Source of the DNA: Rikenellaceae bacterium
Lineage (GTDB): Bacteria; Bacteroidota; Bacteroidia; Bacteroidales; Rikenellaceae
Length of the DNA stretch: 64,000 nt
Reading direction: 5' to 3'
NCBI GenBank assembly: GCA_045637425.1
Contig: JAZTZL010000010.1
Coordinates: 438-64,437, forward strand
The notes under the pieces: generated by a model
Database searches by the model: none
What the model saw: the letters and a program-made list of their open reading frames with translations, nothing else
Told to the model about the DNA's origin: nothing
Shown here: in pieces, positions 16,440-34,254 of the stretch
How the letters are laid out: each line of letters opens with the position of its first letter
Numbering within the stretch: position 1 is the stretch's first letter
Position numbers and translations under genes: made by a program

Positions 16440-17122
16440 AACCCCAGACTAGCTATTTTTTGCTCGAACCAACGCAGTTCATCTTCGATTGTCATATCCG
16501 AATTATCCAAAACAACTGCATCTGCAGCCTGTCTCAGAGGACTCTCCTTGCGAGTCTGATCCTGCAGGTCGCGTTCCGCCAAATTGCGTTCAATCTCCTC
16601 AATCGAGACCTTTTCGCCTTTGGCCTCCAACTCTGCATAACGACGCTGGGCTCGAATCTGCGGAGCCGCAGTCATAAATATCTTCAACTCTGCATCAGGA
16701 AATACCGTAGTACCAATATCCCTACCGTCCATTACAATACCCTTTCTGACACCCATCTCGCGCTGAATCGTAGTCAGATAGCGGCGCACCTCTCCAATCG
16801 AACTCACTCGACTGACCATACTGCTGACCTGCATCGTACGAATTTCAGACTCAACATTGCGACCATTGAGATAGAGATCGCTCGCCTGACGCTCGGGGTT
16901 GAATACAAATTCAAGTTTTATATCTTTCAGCCGTTCTACCAGCCTTTGAACATCAATTTCTCCATCAACAATGAGTCTCTGTTCAATTCCATAGAGAGTT
17001 ACGCCACGATACATCGCACCGGTATCTATAAAGACATAACCCATTCGAGCTGCAACCCGTTTGGCAAATGTACTCTTGCCACACGAAGAGAACCCATCTA
17101 TTGCTATTACTATTTTTTTCAT
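16436..17122 (-). CDS. cmk: Cytidylate kinase
   Basis: 228 aa. P-loop IAIDGFSSCGKST, DTGAMYR and DGRDIGTTVFP. Confidence 0.95.
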   Translation of the reverse strand: MKKIVIAIDGFSSCGKSTFAKRVAARMGYVFIDTGAMYRGVTLYGIEQRLIVDGEIDVQRLVERLKDIKLEFVFNPERQASDLYLNGRNVESEIRTMQVSSMVSRVSSIGEVRRYLTTIQREMGVRKGIVMDGRDIGTTVFPDAELKIFMTAAPQIRAQRRYAELEAKGEKVSIEEIERNLAERDLQDQTRKESPLRQAADAVVLDNSDMTIEDELRWFEQKIASLGL

Positions 17123-17147
17123 CTTGTCGAATTGAATCTACGAAATA

Positions 17148-17825
17148 TTACGGCAGCGGCACTCCATCTATCGGCGTGTCAAAAAACATACTCACAATGG
17201 CAAGCACACCCAATGCTGCGATTAATGCGCCTGAAATGCGATTGATCCACAACAGGTGACGAGGACGGAATCGGTTTCTCAACAGGCTGACCAGCGAAGT
17301 GAGCGTAAGCCACCAGGTATTACCACCTAAATAGACACCTGCCAGCAACAACACATTGCTCAGCAGGTTATTGGCCGTAGGAGTTTGCCCCACACCTGTA
17401 GCTGCGAACAGCGTAACAAATACCAGAATGAATGCCGGATTGGTCAGTGTCAGAAAGAATATAGTTATGAAGTCGCTCCAGAGACTGCCCTTACCTGCTC
17501 GGTTTTTGCGAATCTGCACTGCGGGATTCTTCAGGAATATGTACACACCCATAACTACCACACAAATACCACCTATCATCTTTAGCAGCAACATATGAGT
17601 CTCTACAAATGCTGTAACAAGTGTCAGCGAAAATACTGCTACAATGGCAAAAATGAGATCCGCCGATGCCGCACCCAAGCCGGATACGACTCCCGAACGG
17701 TGCCCCTTACTCAATGTTCGCTGAATACACATTACGCCAATCGGCCCCAACGGAATCGAGGCCATAAATCCAACAGAAAAACCCTTTATCAGGTATATAA
17801 GTGTATCAAAAATATCGGTTCCCAT
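17148..17825 (-). CDS. LysE/RhtB-family amino-acid exporter
   Basis: 225 aa with about 6 TM segments. The N-terminal SIPLGPIGVMCIQRTL pattern is typical of LysE-type translocators. Confidence 0.8.
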   Translation of the reverse strand: MGTDIFDTLIYLIKGFSVGFMASIPLGPIGVMCIQRTLSKGHRSGVVSGLGAASADLIFAIVAVFSLTLVTAFVETHMLLLKMIGGICVVVMGVYIFLKNPAVQIRKNRAGKGSLWSDFITIFFLTLTNPAFILVFVTLFAATGVGQTPTANNLLSNVLLLAGVYLGGNTWWLTLTSLVSLLRNRFRPRHLLWINRISGALIAALGVLAIVSMFFDTPIDGVPLP

Positions 17826-28634: not shown

Positions 28635-29828
28635 ATGCAATCTATTGAAAATTACCCATTCAAAGGCAAACGCGCTTTGATTCGCGTCGATTTCAATGTA
28701 CCAATGAACGACGCAGCAGAGGTTACTGACGACACAAGAATCCGCGCAGCAATCCCAACTATCAAAAAAGTTTTGGCAGAGGGTGGCTCAATCGTGCTGC
28801 TTTCACATATGGGACGACCCAAAGATGGCCCCAGTGAAAAATTGTCGCTCAAGCAGATTATCCCGACTATTGAAAAAAATCTTGATGGTCATAAAGTGCT
28901 CTTCGGAGGCGACTGTATGGGAGAACAAGCTGCAGAAATGTCAAAGAACCTCAAAGAGGGTGAAATTTTATTGCTGGACAACCTTCGTTTCTACAAAGAG
29001 GAAGAGAAAGGTAACGAGGAATTCGCTCGCAAACTCGCTTCGTATGGCGATTGCTACATCAATGACGCATTCGGAACTGCTCACCGTCGCCACGCATCTA
29101 CAGCCGTAATCGCAGACTTCTTCCCCAATGACAAGATGTTCGGCTATGTAATGGAGGGCGAAATTAACGCAATCGACAAGGTATTGAAAAACCCGCAACG
29201 TCCGTTTACAGCAATACTCGGCGGTAGCAAAATATCTTCTAAAATCACCGTCATCGAAAATCTGCTGACTAAAGTCGATAACCTGATTATAGGCGGTGGT
29301 ATGACCTTTACTTTTATGGCAGCTCAAGGCGGTAAGGTTGGCTCATCACTATGCGAACCAGACCAATTTGAGACTGCACTGAGAGTTATCGCTCGTGCTA
29401 AGGAACTCGGAGTAAACCTGGTTCAGGGTGTAGACGCTCTGTGTGGCGACCGTTTCGCAGCAGATGCCGATCAAAAGACATTCTCGTCTATGGATATTCC
29501 CGAAGGCTGGATGGGTCTTGATGCTGGCCCAGAGGCTATCAAAGATTTCGATAAGGTTATTATGGAGTCAAAAACCATTCTCTGGAATGGTCCTGTGGGT
29601 GTATTCGAATTTGACCGCTTCTCTGAAGGCTCTCGCGCCGTATCTGAAAGCATTGTTAAGGCTACGGAACAGGGCGCATACTCGCTTATCGGCGGTGGTG
29701 ACTCGGTAGCCTGCATAAATAAATTCGGACTCGCTGACAAAGTTAGCTACGTGTCAACCGGCGGTGGTGCGCTGTTGGAATATATGGAAGGAATCGAACT
29801 GCCCGGCGTTGCTGCTATCAGAGGTTAA
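28635..29828 (+). CDS. pgk: Phosphoglycerate kinase
   Basis: 397 aa. [20 protein letters not shown]-like [16 protein letters not shown] and GGGDS are classic PGK motifs. Confidence 0.97.
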
Positions 29829-29852: not shown

Positions 29853-29885
29853 AAAAGTCGTTCTTCACAGGACGACTTTTTTTTA
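29853..29885 (+). terminator. Rho-independent terminator after pgk
   Basis: Stem aaaagtcgt / acgactttt with a 10-nt loop. It runs into a T9 tract and starts 25 nt after the pgk stop. Confidence 0.7.
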
Positions 29886-29899
29886 TTCAGTAAAAATAT

Positions 29900-29907
29900 T
29901 ATCTTTG
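29900..29907 (+). promoter_or_regulatory. -7 box TATCTTTG for the three-gene IbrA/IbrB-like operon
   Basis: TAnnTTTG match 30 nt upstream of the ATG at 29937, immediately after the pgk terminator. Confidence 0.45.
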
Positions 29908-29936
29908 CAGTTCGGCAGGAAAAAAAATTAATAGTT

Positions 29937-30323
29937 ATGAAGATATTACGTCTAAACGGAACCGACAAAAAATTGTACGCATTGGTTGCTCCGTTGGTTA
30001 TGAACCCAGCGGTAATAAGACAAAATAACAACTATCCCTACAAGACCTCAGCCCGATATATCTGGCATATTATGGTCGAAAAAGATGAAGTTAAAGGCTT
30101 TATCCCATTAAAACCCACCCTCAACGGATACTGCATCGACAATTACTACTACAAGCTGGATACACCCGAAATATTCGAAAAACTGCTCGATGATGTACTC
30201 GAAGCCGGATATAAAGAACTGACTGCTACTGCACATAAATGCGATGTTAAGGCATTTACGAAAAGAGGTTTCACACTCCTGACAGAACTGAGCAAATACA
30301 CCAAACTTATCAAAACCAAGTAA
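29937..30323 (+). CDS. Small hypothetical protein, possible degenerate GNAT-like fold
   Basis: 128-aa ORF ending 1 nt before the next start. The C-terminal half (YCIDNYYYKLDTPEIFEKLLDDVLEAGYKELTATAHKCDVKAFTKRGF) has the strand-helix-strand-helix spacing of a GNAT core. It lacks the R/QxxGxG/A CoA loop. Confidence 0.5.
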   Translation: MKILRLNGTDKKLYALVAPLVMNPAVIRQNNNYPYKTSARYIWHIMVEKDEVKGFIPLKPTLNGYCIDNYYYKLDTPEIFEKLLDDVLEAGYKELTATAHKCDVKAFTKRGFTLLTELSKYTKLIKTK

Positions 30324-30324
30324 A

Positions 30325-31617
30325 ATGATAAGACCGCTGAACGTATATGAGGCTACGAATCGCAGATTGAAAAAAATCTTCGACAGTTTCGATTATGTCT
30401 ACGTCTGTTTTTCTGGCGGTAAGGATAGCGGTGTGCTGCTGAATATGTGCATTGATTATATACGCAATTATGCTCCGCACAGAAAACTCGGCGTGTTTCA
30501 TATGGACTACGAAGCGCAGTACCAACACACTACAGACTATGTAAAACGTACACTCAGTTCAAATAGCGATATTCTCGAGGTATTCCACTGCTGCGTACCA
30601 TTCAGAGTCGTAACCTGCACCTCAATGTTCCAATCATATTGGCGTCCGTGGGAGGAGTCAAAACGCGAACTCTGGGTGAGAGATATGCCTGAGAATTGTT
30701 ATACGGCAAAGGACTTCGACTTCTTCTCTGAGGATTTGTGGGACTATGACTTTCAACTGCAATTCGCAATCTGGATTCGCAAATTCAAAAAGTGCAAAAA
30801 GGTTTGCAGCCTCGTGGGAATACGCACACAGGAGAGTTTCAACCGCTGGCGAGCAATTCATAGCGAAAAAAATATAAATAAACTCTACGACAACCGTTGG
30901 ACTCACCGTATTGACTACAACGTTTATAACGCCTACCCTCTCTACGATTGGAGAACGGCCGACGTGTGGATTGCCAACGGACGATTCAAGTGGGACTACA
31001 ACCACCTATATGACCTGTACTACCAAGCTGGCATTCCATTGGCAAAGCAACGTGTGGCGAGTCCGTTCATATCGGAAGCTATTGCTACGCTGAACGCCTA
31101 CCGCGTAATCGACCCCGATACCTGGGGCAAGATGGTCAGTCGTGTGAATGGTGTAAATTTTGCCGGCATCTACGGAAAGAGTATGGCAATGGGCTGGAGA
31201 TCGATAAAATGCCCCGAGGGATTCTCGTGGAAAGACTATATGTATTTCCTGCTCAATACGCTGCCGTTTAACATTAGAAGGAACTACCTCGACAAGCTGC
31301 ACACAAGTATGAAGTTCTGGCGCGAGCGAGGCGGCTGCCTGAGCGAAGAGACAATCGCAAAACTCAAAAAGGCAGGCATAAATTTCACATTCGGCAAAAC
31401 ATCGGGCTACCACACCGAAAAACGAACGGTCAAAATGGAATACATCGACGATATTGATATCCCCGAATTCAAGGAGATTCCGAGTTACAAACGAATGTGC
31501 GTCTGCATACTGAAGAACGACCACATATGTAAGTATATGGGATTCACAATGAACAAACTCGAAAAGGATATCCGAAATAATGTAATGGAGAAATATAAAT
31601 TTTTGATAGATGGCTGA
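30325..31617 (+). CDS. PP-loop ATP-pyrophosphatase of the PAPS-reductase family with C-terminal DUF3440-like extension (IbrA-like)
   Basis: PP-loop motif CFSGGKDSGV at aa 28-37 (nt ~30406-30435). The ~200-aa PAPS-reductase-like core includes GIRTQES. About 200 aa of C-terminal extension matches the architecture of E. coli IbrA-type proteins. Confidence 0.8.
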   Translation: MIRPLNVYEATNRRLKKIFDSFDYVYVCFSGGKDSGVLLNMCIDYIRNYAPHRKLGVFHMDYEAQYQHTTDYVKRTLSSNSDILEVFHCCVPFRVVTCTSMFQSYWRPWEESKRELWVRDMPENCYTAKDFDFFSEDLWDYDFQLQFAIWIRKFKKCKKVCSLVGIRTQESFNRWRAIHSEKNINKLYDNRWTHRIDYNVYNAYPLYDWRTADVWIANGRFKWDYNHLYDLYYQAGIPLAKQRVASPFISEAIATLNAYRVIDPDTWGKMVSRVNGVNFAGIYGKSMAMGWRSIKCPEGFSWKDYMYFLLNTLPFNIRRNYLDKLHTSMKFWRERGGCLSEETIAKLKKAGINFTFGKTSGYHTEKRTVKMEYIDDIDIPEFKEIPSYKRMCVCILKNDHICKYMGFTMNKLEKDIRNNVMEKYKFLIDG

Positions 31618-32131
31618 TTTTAAGAGTCCGGTATATAATATAATTTCAGTTCCGGTAGAGAAGATTGTTGCTAATAATTACAACCCAAATATCGTAGCTC
31701 CACCAGAGATGAAGTTGCTCGAACTGTCAATTTGGGAAGACGGCTACACGATGCCGTGTGTGTGCTATTACCTTGCCGACTGCGATAAGTATGAACTCGT
31801 TGACGGCTACCACCGATATATGGTAATGATGACCTCGAAACGAATCTACGAACGCGAAAAGGGGCTGCTGCCCGTATCAGTCATCAATAAGGATATTTCC
31901 GAACGTATGGCATCAACAATCAGGCACAATCGTGCTCGTGGGGTGCACTCCGTTGAGTTGATGAGCAATATAGTGTCCGAGCTGACCAAAGCAGGAATGT
32001 CTGATGCGTGGATTATCCGCAATATCGGAATGTCAAAAGATGAGCTAATACGCCTGAAACAGATTACGGGATTGGCCGAACTTTTTGCCAACAATGAGTT
32101 TTCTCAATCGGAAGATTGGATCGAAGATTAA
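31610..32131 (+). CDS. ParB/sulfiredoxin-fold protein (IbrB-like)
   Basis: 173 aa. ParB-N-like motifs NPNIVAPPEM, ELVDGYHRY and TIRHNRARG. 8-nt overlap with the upstream PAPS-reductase-family gene. Confidence 0.8.
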   Translation: MADFKSPVYNIISVPVEKIVANNYNPNIVAPPEMKLLELSIWEDGYTMPCVCYYLADCDKYELVDGYHRYMVMMTSKRIYEREKGLLPVSVINKDISERMASTIRHNRARGVHSVELMSNIVSELTKAGMSDAWIIRNIGMSKDELIRLKQITGLAELFANNEFSQSEDWIED

Positions 32132-32225
32132 ACACAAATATTTGATTACAAAAGCATTACAAAAATCAAAAACTTTTCGCAGAAAAAAAATGCACCCAAA
32201 ATTTGGATAATTCGCCAAAAGAGTG

Positions 32226-32233
32226 TACTTTTG
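32226..32233 (+). promoter_or_regulatory. -7 box TACTTTTG upstream of tRNA-Leu
   Basis: TAnnTTTG match 21 nt upstream of the mature tRNA 5' end. Confidence 0.4.
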
Positions 32234-32253
32234 CATCGGTTTAAGAGATTTAT

Positions 32254-32337
32254 GCCCAGGTGGTGGAATTGGTAGACACGCCACTTTGAGGGGGTGGTGC
32301 CGGTTTCGGCGTGCAAGTTCGACTCTTGTCCTGGGCA
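32254..32337 (+). tRNA. tRNA-Leu (anticodon GAG)
   Basis: Manual cloverleaf: acceptor GCCCAGG/CCTGGGC, anticodon stem CCACT/GGTGG with loop TTGAGGG, long variable arm, T-arm GCAAG TTCGACT CTTGT, discriminator A. No encoded CCA. Confidence 0.9.
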
Positions 32338-32340
32338 CTC

Positions 32341-32375
32341 AAAACGGAGAAGATTTTAGTCTTCTCCGTTTTCTT
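32341..32375 (+). terminator. Terminator hairpin after tRNA-Leu
   Basis: Perfect 12-bp stem aaaacggagaag / cttctccgtttt with an 8-nt loop and a T-rich 3' side. Confidence 0.6.
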
Positions 32376-32674
32376 ATATAACGGCAAACATGATTCAAAT
32401 TTTCATACGATATAGTTAATTTCAGTATCCTATGCGGATTTTTACTTTGCATATACCCTAATATCTTTACAGCAAACTAAGAACAAAAAGACCTACTGAC
32501 GAATGTCAATAGGTCTTTCTTTATCTGAATACAATATAATGCGGTTGATATGTCAGTTGAAACATCTGCTCCAACTAAAAAGATTAAACATTAAATTATC
32601 AAACTTATGCTTGATTATAGCCACCGTATTTGATTTTGAGTAGTTTGTAATGCTTAGGCAGCCTAAAGAAATGT

Positions 32675-32723
32675 TCTAAAACAAAGAAAGCGGCTTTTGA
32701 CAATAAGTCATTTACCGCTTTTC
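32675..32723 (-). terminator. Terminator after lipoprotein gene
   Basis: On the minus strand, stem gaaaagcgg...ccgctttc is followed by tttgtttt. It lies about 25 nt downstream of the stop at 32746. Confidence 0.45.
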
Positions 32724-32745
32724 TTATTGTGATATTTAATCAAGG

Positions 32746-33522
32746 TTATTTCCAAGTTAGGGTATATGTAGATGAGCCAGCACTTTCTTTTACTTTAATT
32801 TTTGAAATATAACCCTCTTTGTCAAATTCATATGTTATAGTTGAATGATCAGTTGAATAATCATCAGTTATTGTTACACTTGTCGGTAATTGAGAGGTTC
32901 TTAGTCCTGCAATTTCAGGATGAGCCATAGATAAAAGACTAAGTTCATGATTGTCTTGTATCATAGTGGCAATGAAAGGGAAATAGCCTTTCTGGCAAGA
33001 ATTTCCATATTTTAATGTAACATCATCGTATTCACGAGATATAGAGACAAGCTTATCGCCATCCCAAATGGCAGTTACTACATAATCATATTCATATATT
33101 CCTTTGGCGAATCTGTTAGAACTATTGTATAAGAATGAATCACCATTATCACTATTTCTAACGAGTTTGTCATTAAGATTATAGGTTAAGCTACTTCCAC
33201 TTCCATCAACGCAGTTAACTTTGATTGCATCATCACCCCAAACAAATTGATAGCTCCGTGTGTCTTTATACCCATCATCTTCTTCGGAGTAAACCGCTTG
33301 AACAAGTCTTCCTTGACTGTCATAGTTGAATGTATACGTTTCAGAATAAGAACCATCTTCTGACGTACCAGTACCAACAATTTTTGCTAGTTTCTTGCCA
33401 CTAACAACAATTCCACCTTCTTCAGGTTCTTCTGTTGGATCATCATCCTTACTACACGAAGTAAAGTTTACGCATAAAAGAATAGCAGCCAATGCCATTC
33501 CAACCAATTTAAATGTTTTCAT
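32746..33522 (-). CDS. Lipoprotein with YD/RHS-repeat-like motifs (DUF4595-like?)
   Basis: Start at ATG 33522 gives MKTFKLVGMALAAILLCVNFTSC (lipobox) followed by SKDDDP. The body contains YD-repeat-like segments (TYTFNYDSQGRLVQAVY, ITYEFDKEGYISKI). The gene is clearly more AT-rich than its surroundings. Confidence 0.7.
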   Translation of the reverse strand: MKTFKLVGMALAAILLCVNFTSCSKDDDPTEEPEEGGIVVSGKKLAKIVGTGTSEDGSYSETYTFNYDSQGRLVQAVYSEEDDGYKDTRSYQFVWGDDAIKVNCVDGSGSSLTYNLNDKLVRNSDNGDSFLYNSSNRFAKGIYEYDYVVTAIWDGDKLVSISREYDDVTLKYGNSCQKGYFPFIATMIQDNHELSLLSMAHPEIAGLRTSQLPTSVTITDDYSTDHSTITYEFDKEGYISKIKVKESAGSSTYTLTWK

Positions 33523-33576
33523 TACTAATTGAATTTGTACCCTCACAATTCCCAGATGAAAGCAAACAAAAATTAA

Positions 33577-33759
33577 GGTGTGGGAACTTACTGTTTTATC
33601 CTTAGATTAGGCTTCTCGCATTGCCCTTAGAGTGGATAAAACAATAGCCCACACCAAAGGATATGCGAATAACCAATAACGGTTTGTACATATCAATGAT
33701 GTGGTGCTACTGCCAACCATCTTCACTCTAAAGAGAATTTTGCGAGAATTCAATCTAAG
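33577..33759 (-). promoter_or_regulatory. Candidate structured 5'-leader element: nested and long-range imperfect inverted repeats
   Basis: Helix A 33577-33584/33648-33655 (8 bp). Helix B 33592-33601/33634-33643 (10 bp). A long-range three-segment helix: 33601-33608/33752-33759, 33613-33620/33741-33748 and 33627-33634/33724-33731 (8 bp each). The left arm of the long-range helix lies in the loop of helix B, giving a pseudoknot or alternative-fold topology. Confidence 0.35.
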
Positions 33760-33827
33760 AAGATAATTTCAATAACACCTTTTTCCAAAATGTCCAATCC
33801 AAACCACTGAATAGTCTGAACGTATTG

Positions 33828-33989: not shown

Positions 33990-33999
33990 CTTTTCTGAG

Positions 34000-34074
34000 T
34001 CGGGGTACCAGGATTCGAACCTGGGACCCCCTGCTCCCAAAGCAGGTGCGCTAACCGGACTGCGCTACACCCCG
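34000..34074 (-). tRNA. tRNA-Pro (anticodon TGG)
   Basis: Reverse complement folds as CGGGGTG TA GCGC AGTCCGGTTA GCGC A CCTGC TTTGGGA GCAGG GGGTC CCAGG TTCGAAT CCTGG TACCCCG A. Confidence 0.9.
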
Positions 34075-34179
34075 AACTTATTTCTATTTTTGTGAACTTT
34101 CTTAATTACTCCACCAACACTCTCTCATCTTTCCTTCTCTCACCGTCCCCCCCCCTGCAAGCACTGTTGGTACGACTTG

Positions 34180-34254
34180 TCGGGGTGGCGGGATTCGAAC
34201 CCACGACCTCCTGCACCCGAAGCAGGCGCGCTAACCGGACTGCGCTACACCCCG
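34180..34254 (-). tRNA. tRNA-Pro (anticodon CGG)
   Basis: Reverse complement folds as CGGGGTG TA GCGC AGTCCGGTTA GCGC G CCTGC TTCGGGT GCAGG AGGTC GTGGG TTCGAAT CCCGC CACCCCG A. Confidence 0.9.

Follow-up and report, generated by a model that had tools for sequence, protein, structure and literature searches.

We examined a three-gene locus on a 64,000-nucleotide stretch of a Rikenellaceae bacterium genome (GenBank assembly GCA_045637425.1, contig JAZTZL010000010.1, positions 438 to 64,437), hereafter the window, whose numbering is used throughout. The three open reading frames (ORFs) lie on the plus strand downstream of the phosphoglycerate kinase gene pgk (28635-29828). ORF1 (29937-30323) encodes a 128-residue GNAT-fold protein from a small, unnamed family restricted to Bacteroidota; ORF2 (30325-31617) encodes a 430-residue PP-loop ATP pyrophosphatase of the IbrA/YbdN type; and ORF3 (31610-32131) encodes a 173-residue IbrB/YbdM-type protein with a ParB/sulfiredoxin (Srx) fold and a C-terminal part resembling a helix-turn-helix (HTH). 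A single nucleotide separates ORF1 from ORF2, and ORF2 overlaps ORF3 by 8 nucleotides. These genes constitute a self-contained chromosomal operon, one form of a module that occurs abundantly in phages.

The operon has a clear start. An intrinsic terminator of pgk (29853-29885, plus strand), which consists of a 12-pair stem (29853-29880) with a 4-nucleotide loop followed by a T-run and was also recovered by an inverted-repeat scan, forms the upstream boundary. It is followed by the plus-strand promoter box TATCTTTG (29900-29907), a match to the Bacteroidetes-type -7 element TAnnTTTG that can be read directly from the sequence and lies 37 nucleotides upstream of the ORF1 ATG. Since the window contains 74 TAnnTTTG sites against 51 ± 8 expected, the motif alone has no significance; its placement is meaningful because approximately 45 of 69 distinct related loci carry a TAnnTTTG box 15-50 nucleotides 5′ of the ORF1 homolog. 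The box is also the sole element common to the 5′ regions of these 69 loci, and, apart from two terminator hairpins, the inverted-repeat scan found no repeat of the operator or parS kind within the cassette or close to it. The downstream boundary region (32226-32372) contains tRNA-Leu(gag), identified by ARAGORN at 32254-32338 on the plus strand. This gene lies outside the module and has its own promoter box, TACTTTTG (32226-32233, plus strand), and a 3′ terminator (32341-32372, plus strand) that consists of a perfect 13-bp hairpin followed by T's. A preliminary description of this DNA had listed the terminator, the promoter box, the three reading frames with their motifs and the tRNA with its own box, all of which lie where it placed them. 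It had further proposed that the unit is self-contained and insulated from pgk. The pgk terminator separates the unit from the upstream gene, but our hairpin and inverted-repeat scan of the window found no terminator-like site between the ORF3 stop codon and tRNA-Leu. The unit is thus insulated from pgk and not demonstrably from the tRNA, since the next hairpin lies 3′ of the latter.

ORF2 contains an N-terminal PAPS_reduct domain (Pfam accession PF01507; residues 26-233; 47.0 bits against a gathering threshold of 22.5; E = 3.9e-12) followed by a DUF3440 domain (Pfam accession PF11922; residues 236-414; 299.8 bits against a threshold of 25; E = 8.9e-90). It matches phrog_2302 (E = 5.8e-98) and aligns over its full length with Escherichia coli K-12 YbdN (31% identity over residues 4-419; E = 8e-64), and this homology identifies it as a member of the IbrA/YbdN family. 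The PP-loop, FSGGKDSG (30409-30432, plus strand; residues 29-36), is intact, and its SGGKDS core is invariant in 142 IbrA sequences that include the E. coli and phage copies. Other invariant features of the family are DxExQ, GIRxxESxxR, and YPxYDW. Two cysteines, C392 and C402, fall within an RxCxC...NDHxC segment near the C-terminus (31498-31530, plus strand); they are present in 99% and 98% of the 142 sequences, respectively, and both are kept in YbdN. C90, C98, and C394 are further conserved cysteines, but only in sequences that lie outside the enterobacterial branch.

An AlphaFold 2 model of ORF2 is good over residues 1-235, and the structural neighbors of this N-terminal domain comprise PAPS/APS reductase, FMN adenylyltransferase/FAD synthase, CysD, TilS, NcsA, TtuA, and LarE; in each case only the N-terminal domain aligns. 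As a single sequence ORF2 retrieved nothing from the Protein Data Bank (PDB), and as a profile it retrieved matches to its PP-loop N-terminal domain only. Enzymes of this fold whose PP-loop is intact cleave ATP and attach the adenylyl group to an oxygen. The target is a sulfate or phosphate oxyanion for CysD and FMN adenylyltransferase and a base carbonyl for TilS, TtuA, and NcsA.

ORF3 is 46% identical to E. coli YbdM (E = 6e-50) and matches phrog_2159 (E = 4.2e-74), which identifies it by sequence as an IbrB/YbdM homolog. A profile of its family matches the ParB-superfamily structures Noc (7ol9; E = 3e-5) and ParB (4umk; E = 1.7e-4) over residues 9-74. When the N-terminal 75 residues are aligned to Noc with HMMER, the motif DGYHRY (31802-31819, plus strand; residues 65-70) falls on GERRWR, the ParB box II; D65, G66, H68, and R69 were invariant in a 14-sequence comparison. 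A second, arginine-rich motif, RHNRARG (31922-31942, plus strand; R105-G111), is invariant in another 119 sequences as well as in the same 14, which come from four phyla or host groups. Homologs from phages of Actinobacteria and Firmicutes are 61-66% identical to ORF3. Residues ~128-150 resemble an HTH segment by eye only, and the protein ends ~25 residues beyond it. We rejected the possibility that ORF3 is a canonical partition ParB, as it has DGYHRY rather than GERRxR in box II, lacks an adjacent ParA, and stops so soon after the HTH-like segment, where the CTPase clamp proteins of the partition type have a C-terminal dimerization domain. The GxHR form of box II resembles that of the ATP-binding Srx and DndB branch. 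ParB-fold proteins more generally have been found to bind various nucleoside triphosphates (PMC12704722). The earlier assignment of ORF2 to the IbrA-like PP-loop PAPS_reduct/DUF3440 proteins is thus upheld by above-threshold matches to both Pfam domains and by homology to YbdN, and that of ORF3 to the IbrB-like proteins by homology to YbdM; the alignment with Noc and ParB supports a ParB-type N-terminal domain in ORF3, for which the Pfam ParB_N score stays below its cut-off.

ORF1 had no match in Pfam, NCBIfam, PHROG, or PADLOC. Its AlphaFold 2 model is confident (predicted local distance difference test score [pLDDT] 94.8; predicted template modeling score 0.88) and has the topology β1-α1-α2-β2-β3-β4-α3-β5-α4-β6-β7 typical of GNAT proteins. 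Foldseek returned ElaA as the top match (5z6n_A; E = 9.5e-6, template modeling score 0.79, probability 1.00) among 173 PDB matches at E ≤ 1e-3, with GCN5, PseH, and others also at probability 1.00; viral GNATs likewise match the model structurally. ORF1 is therefore predicted, by fold only and with high confidence, to adopt the GNAT acyltransferase fold. It resembles ElaA-like acyltransferases in topology, and differs from them in its shorter length, in lacking a Pfam GNAT match at the sequence level, and in its own invariant residues, the family-specific RQNNNYPFKT and IDNYY. A profile of the ORF1 family aligned to ElaA with hhalign gave a probability of 0.3%, which is without significance, and the β4-α3 loop reads YKLDTPE where the family consensus is xGDxxxx. 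By its conservation ORF1 is a real gene: we recovered 148 homologs, none of which is named, the family occupies 319 representative clusters among 1.84e9, all members are ~130 residues long, and in the related loci compared, homologs always lie directly 5′ of IbrA.

Several ORF1 homologs depart from this standard form. Five (P0389, P0391, P0397, P0404, and P0472) carry Lys/Arg-rich C-terminal tails, of which two include the AT-hook core RGRP and one, with AKPAKAA repeats, resembles histone H1. Two apparent fusions were not accepted as true fusions and look like deletions, frameshifts, or assembly errors. In P0473 (223 residues), the first ~60 residues of an ORF1 homolog are joined straight to an IbrB homolog, with IbrA apparently deleted, and in P0435 (422 residues), ORF1 is followed by a frameshifted IbrA.

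The three genes travel together. In a sample of 74 species loci from Bacteroidales and Flavobacteriales, the order ORF1-ORF2-ORF3 is kept in approximately 60, with identities to the window proteins of 67-89% for ORF3, 56-83% for ORF2, and 26-58% for ORF1. A co-oriented, overlapping IbrB-like gene lies directly 3′ of IbrA in at least 58 genome loci, in 61 viral loci, and in E. coli. The synteny thus holds in most of the related loci sampled, usually with a promoter box 5′ of ORF1. The preliminary description had asked whether the 128-residue gene always co-occurs with the pair, and nine genome loci have a helicase gene in its place.

The same description had raised the possibilities that the unit is enriched in defense islands or linked to tRNA genes, and neither is supported. 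When the neighbors of 67 genome loci were clustered, no gene beyond the trio was common to more than eight loci, and the recurrent flanks are housekeeping genes (SbcCD, glutamate and malate dehydrogenases, TauE). In PADLOC-DB 2.0, ORF1 and ORF3 had no match, and ORF2 matched DndC and BrxP only in part and below threshold. The GC content of the cassette is 41-49%, equal to that of its flanks, so that no compositional anomaly is present. The tRNA-Leu neighbor is shared only with the closest relative, and any tRNA lies nearby in only 2-3 of 47 loci. We therefore rejected both a defense-island location and a tRNA-linked integration site. As a separate observation, the trio locus of one Bacteroidales metagenome-assembled genome (L073) is bracketed by two tRNA-Lys(ttt) genes in the same orientation, 16 kb apart (1115-1188 and 17089-17162).

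The module has a wider context in phages. In the nine genome loci that lack ORF1, the gene overlapping the start of IbrA encodes a ~400-residue SNF2-family helicase, and genes for Amidoligase_2, a C5-cytosine methylase, a TET-associated glycosyltransferase, and terminase are present in the surrounding prophage-like DNA. We found at least 589 stretches in IMG/VR that encode relatives of the module. Among the best 80 of these, for which arrangements were scored, 40 have the order SNF2-IbrA-IbrB, 12 have IbrA-IbrB, 22 have IbrA alone, and 6 have GNAT-IbrA-IbrB; the two GNAT-form viral contigs that were checked (L135 and L084) are host flanks beside prophages. The IbrA-IbrB pair is common in phages of Bacteroidota, Firmicutes, and Actinobacteria, and an SNF2-like or other helicase usually occupies the slot of ORF1. 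IbrA-like genes occur in at least 210 records of cultured phages, among them phages of Flavobacterium, Mycobacterium, and Streptococcus. The gene order in Streptococcus thermophilus phage D4276 is AcrIIA5, a hypothetical gene, SNF2-like gp30, IbrA, and IbrB, and gp30 is related to a Prevotella prophage helicase (E = 6e-60). Mycobacteriophage Nebkiss encodes, in this order, a helicase that is not of the SNF2 kind, IbrA, and IbrB (together gp102-104), followed by a GIY-YIG gene. The Nebkiss IbrB homolog gp104 (L165:6290-7189) has an extra N-terminal domain of ~130 residues that is absent from ORF3, and the GIY-YIG-like endonuclease gene comes next.

Only two loci contain all four genes in the order SNF2-GNAT-IbrA-IbrB (L066:2576-6050 and L067:1973-4810). 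The first of these is an 8.8-kb contig from Apibacter muscae that encodes an amidase, an SNase-like nuclease, the four genes, a Cro/CI-type HTH protein, and an integrase; its name gives ~1800× coverage, and it looks like the lysis-to-integrase end of an active or high-copy temperate element. The coexistence of both genes in L066 and L067, together with the GNAT fold, led us to reject the idea that ORF1 is a remnant or domain of the SNF2 helicase. We infer that a GNAT gene joined the phage helicase-IbrA-IbrB module and that a helicase-less copy then became fixed in Bacteroidales chromosomes, such that the Bacteroidales cassette would be a domesticated descendant of the phage module from which the helicase has been lost. 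In line with a phage connection, a neighbor-joining tree without support values places the chromosomal GNAT variant mostly in one clade among phage lineages.

Two further features of the phage loci deserve mention. A conserved ORF of ~107 residues lies one to three genes 5′ of the SNF2-like helicase in 31 of 50 SNF2-variant loci (e.g., L095:6175-6498); it had no Pfam or PADLOC match, and the phage module may include it as a fourth component. Separately, a clade of 22 viral loci (L099-L109 and L120-L132; e.g., L102:7896-9269) encodes an IbrA that is 57-60% identical to ORF2, with no detectable IbrB. IbrA in this clade sits at the end of the element by tyrosine integrases and after a DUF6965 protein, and a shorter PAPS_reduct protein is encoded upstream (L102:3676-4377).

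Among described systems, E. coli IbrA/IbrB (YbdN/YbdM) shares with the operon the two-domain IbrA, full-length homology of both proteins, gene order, and overlapping reading frames. The E. coli locus differs in having no ORF1-like GNAT gene and a LysR regulator gene upstream instead, and YbdN lacks a DUF3440 insert of ~28 residues as well as the Cys90/Cys98/Cys394 set that is conserved in the clade of Bacteroidota and phage proteins. To our knowledge, the only reported phenotype of IbrA/IbrB is activation of prophage eib gene expression. The preliminary description took the chemistry of these proteins to be unknown, and our limited literature search likewise found no mechanistic paper on IbrA, IbrB, YbdN, YbdM, or DUF3440. 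The phage SNF2-IbrA-IbrB module (D4276 gp30-gp32, the Prevotella and Dysgonomonas prophages, and, with its other helicase, Nebkiss) has the same order and overlaps, and its proteins are 55-68% (IbrA) and 61-76% (IbrB) identical to those of the window. It differs in having the helicase rather than a GNAT gene in the upstream slot and in lying in early or accessory phage regions.

DndB/DndC, and also SspD and BrxP, resemble the operon in combining a PP-loop ATP pyrophosphatase of the PAPS reductase family with a ParB-superfamily partner that has a GxHR box, which reads DGQHR in DndB. The Dnd pair is also directed at DNA, as is proposed here for the trio. The resemblance stops there: DndC lacks DUF3440, ORF2 scores 18.7 bits against the DndC model TIGR03183 (cut-off 290.4) with coverage of only residues ~153-235, and no DndD, DndE, SspB, SspC, cysteine desulfurase, or restriction partner lies near the trio. 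We therefore rejected ORF2 as a DndC, and membership in Dnd, Ssp, or BREX-4 more generally, which agrees with the earlier view that the locus differs from Dnd and Ssp. A different parallel is provided by the phage 5mYOX/ParB pairs, in which a DNA thymine dioxygenase needs a ParB-like protein that activates it specifically on double-stranded DNA (PMC13229309). Here too a ParB-fold gene lies beside a gene for a DNA-modifying enzyme in phages, and we take these pairs as a working model for the role of IbrB. The differences are that the partner is an iron- and 2-oxoglutarate-dependent dioxygenase rather than a PP-loop enzyme and that IbrB is short (173 residues) with an HTH-like C-terminus. For ORF1, a possible precedent is Mom of phage Mu, which has a GNAT-like fold. 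Mom is cited as involved in DNA hypermodification by the authors of PMC13551039, under a reference whose title refers to tRNA-dependent modification of DNA adenine.

The preliminary description had proposed that the trio modifies a nucleic acid, and this idea is plausible on grounds of context and analogy. What we add to it are the GNAT fold of ORF1 and the link to a phage-type module with an SNF2 helicase partner. We tentatively favor DNA as the most likely substrate because the recurrent phage partner is an SNF2 translocase, DNA-modification genes are occasional neighbors, some ORF1 homologs have AT-hook or H1-like tails, and there is the precedent of the ParB-activated dioxygenase. By this analogy, IbrB may serve for targeting or activation, IbrA may be the enzyme that activates the substrate, and ORF1 may act in acyl or aminoacyl transfer or as an accessory subunit. 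IbrB would bind a nucleotide triphosphate in a pocket formed by the GxHR and RHNRARG motifs, would bind DNA through its HTH-like C-terminal part, and would recruit or activate IbrA on double-stranded DNA. With its intact SGGKDS PP-loop, IbrA would then cleave ATP and transfer the adenylyl group to a DNA oxygen, which could belong to a base carbonyl or to a phosphate of the backbone or of a terminus. Substitution at this activated site would follow, possibly with the participation of C392 and C402, and the GNAT-fold ORF1 might supply or process an acyl or aminoacyl group on the product. The operon is not accompanied by a nuclease or any other effector and its surroundings are housekeeping, and the outcome would be an orphan epigenetic or regulatory DNA mark. 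In its fullest form, the proposal would have abundant gut Bacteroidales constitutively carrying a novel, phage-captured covalent DNA modification, with a ParB-like protein for targeting, a PP-loop enzyme for adenylylation, and a GNAT-fold protein for acyl or aminoacyl transfer. YbdNM of E. coli K-12 and hundreds of phages from three phyla would share the same core chemistry. We consider this complete version doubtful.

A number of observations weigh against this interpretation. DUF3440 was modeled poorly, with pLDDT below 50 over residues 246-291, and structure searches found no relative of this domain. ORF3 scores 18.5 bits against Pfam ParB_N (PF02195), below the gathering cut-off of 26.3. 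ORF1 may be non-catalytic, since it has no Pfam GNAT match at E < 0.1 and no recognizable acetyl-CoA motif A (Q/R-x-x-G-x-G/A). The link to DNA-modification neighbors is weak because Amidoligase_2, the C5-cytosine methylase, and the TET-associated glycosyltransferase occur at only ~10% of phage loci. The 61-66% identity of IbrB across phages of three phyla fits a universal substrate, which could be DNA or equally tRNA, RNA polymerase, or a nucleotide. The neighbor-joining tree of the chromosomal and phage lineages carries no support values. Finally, the literature that we reached reports no modification, substrate, or activity for any family member.

These points leave room for several other explanations. 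One is that the proteins form a pure transcription factor complex, in which IbrB acts as a ParB-like HTH DNA-binding switch that activates or counter-silences genes, with IbrA and ORF1 as nucleotide-dependent cofactors and no covalent change to nucleic acid. The family names, "co-activator of prophage gene expression" and "IbrA family prophage gene co-activator" (PMC4490671; PMC8813620), point this way, as do the ParB-fold proteins KorB and DndB that are described as transcriptional regulators (PMC13229309; PMC12704722), the cro/cI-type regulators that adjoin the module in phages, and the position of E. coli K-12 ybdN and ybdM after a LysR-type regulator in whose mutant they change. However, neither the PP-loop nor any of the PAPS-reductase catalytic scaffold varies across four phyla or host groups, which speaks for an enzymatic activity that has been kept, and the SNF2 partner suggests work done on DNA. 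The putative DNA-reading helix is moreover 60-90% identical from mycobacteriophages to Bacteroidales, which would be unexpected for a sequence-specific regulator, and we regard a purely regulatory complex as unlikely. A substrate other than DNA, such as a tRNA or rRNA base, a protein, or a small-molecule phosphate, can be modeled on TilS, TtcA, TtuA, and NcsA, with the GNAT acting as in tRNA or aminoacyl-tRNA acetyltransferases. Three of these enzymes (TilS, NcsA, and TtuA) are among the structural neighbors of the ORF2 N-terminal domain, a universal cellular target would fit the extreme conservation of IbrB and IbrA between phyla, the window copy adjoins tRNA-Leu with no terminator between, and ParB/Srx folds include small-molecule kinases, with SbnI and a serine kinase as weak PDB matches of the ORF3 profile. 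The adjacency to tRNA is not conserved, however, a Pfam scan detected no RNA-binding domain (THUMP, PUA, or TRAM), and both the SNF2-type translocase and the AT-hook tails point to DNA, such that this alternative seems improbable to us.

The phage connection suggests a further reading, namely that the operon is a conflict system kept from a phage, either an anti-defense modification or inhibitor that now protects the chromosome or an anti-phage or abortive-infection effector pair. The D4276 module follows two genes after an annotated anti-CRISPR gene, AcrIIA5 (L164:4981-5403), and therefore sits in an early or accessory region where anti-defense genes cluster; the L066 module similarly occupies an accessory region between lysis genes and integrase. 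PAPS-reductase-family genes occur in Aca-regulated anti-defense operons, and a phage PAPS reductase is cited (Piel 2022) as helping to evade host Dnd, both according to PMC13551039. The listed effector partners of a NAP-sensor defense family also include a PAPS reductase, either alone or together with Arc and ParBc proteins (bioRxiv 10.64898/2026.04.06.716658). Against these parallels stand the housekeeping surroundings in the window and in 57 species loci, with no recurrent integrase, nuclease, sensor, or defense gene; the lack of a system-level PADLOC match; a base composition like that of the flanks; and conservation of ORF2 and ORF3 that is high, unlike that of fast-evolving defense genes. 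We thus hold a retained conflict function to be rather improbable. The name of the Pfam domain, and many database names, would make ORF2 an ordinary assimilatory PAPS reductase (CysH) of sulfur metabolism, and several virome papers count phage copies as sulfur auxiliary metabolic genes. CysH has a C-terminal catalytic motif, ECGLH. The ORF2 translation contains no ECG motif, no NCBIfam CysH model was matched (the best NCBIfam scores are far below cut-offs), and ORF2 has an ATP-binding SGGKDS PP-loop, an additional domain of 180 residues (DUF3440), and a ParB-like partner that is obligatory, with no cys genes nearby. We accordingly rejected this assignment and give it almost no credence.

The tentatively favored role in DNA modification bears on a widespread group of proteins. 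IbrA/IbrB-type pairs are very common, as each of two queries scored over 6,700 clusters at 90% identity, and they span E. coli K-12, many gut Bacteroidales, and the cultured phages counted above. The IbrA-IbrB core is itself already known as a named and widely annotated family. What appears to be new is the conserved GNAT-fold third gene, the stable chromosomal residence of the cassette across Bacteroidales, and the explicit tie to the phage helicase-IbrA-IbrB module, including four-gene intermediates. Phage copies are likely mislabeled, as virome studies routinely tally them under sulfur assimilation and the evidence from motifs and context argues otherwise. The additional GNAT-fold subunit and the link to a phage SNF2 translocase narrow the possible chemistry of IbrAB. 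The Bacteroidales cassette offers the pair in a clean form that stands alone, is constitutively promoted, and is present in cultivable species such as Paraprevotella clara, Phocaeicola massiliensis, and Xylanibacter muris; the trio thus provides a good handle on the long-standing question of IbrAB function, one that is directly testable in these carriers.

In the window, genes for arginase, NhaA, an S41 peptidase, and phosphoglycerate kinase flank the operon on the 5′ side, and on the 3′ side are tRNAs and genes for a lipoprotein, a META-domain protein, a nitroreductase, RsmG, an extracytoplasmic function sigma factor, a family 2 glycosyltransferase, and dehydroquinate synthase. GC content dips to 32-37% at 32000-33800, compared with 41-49% in the surrounding sequence, in a stretch that spans the region 3′ of tRNA-Leu and the predicted lipoprotein gene (32746-33546, minus strand; 266 residues; no Pfam match). 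Just 3′ of this low-GC stretch are two tRNA-Pro genes (TGG and CGG anticodons; 33999-34074 and 34179-34254, minus strand), which are separated by 105 nucleotides.

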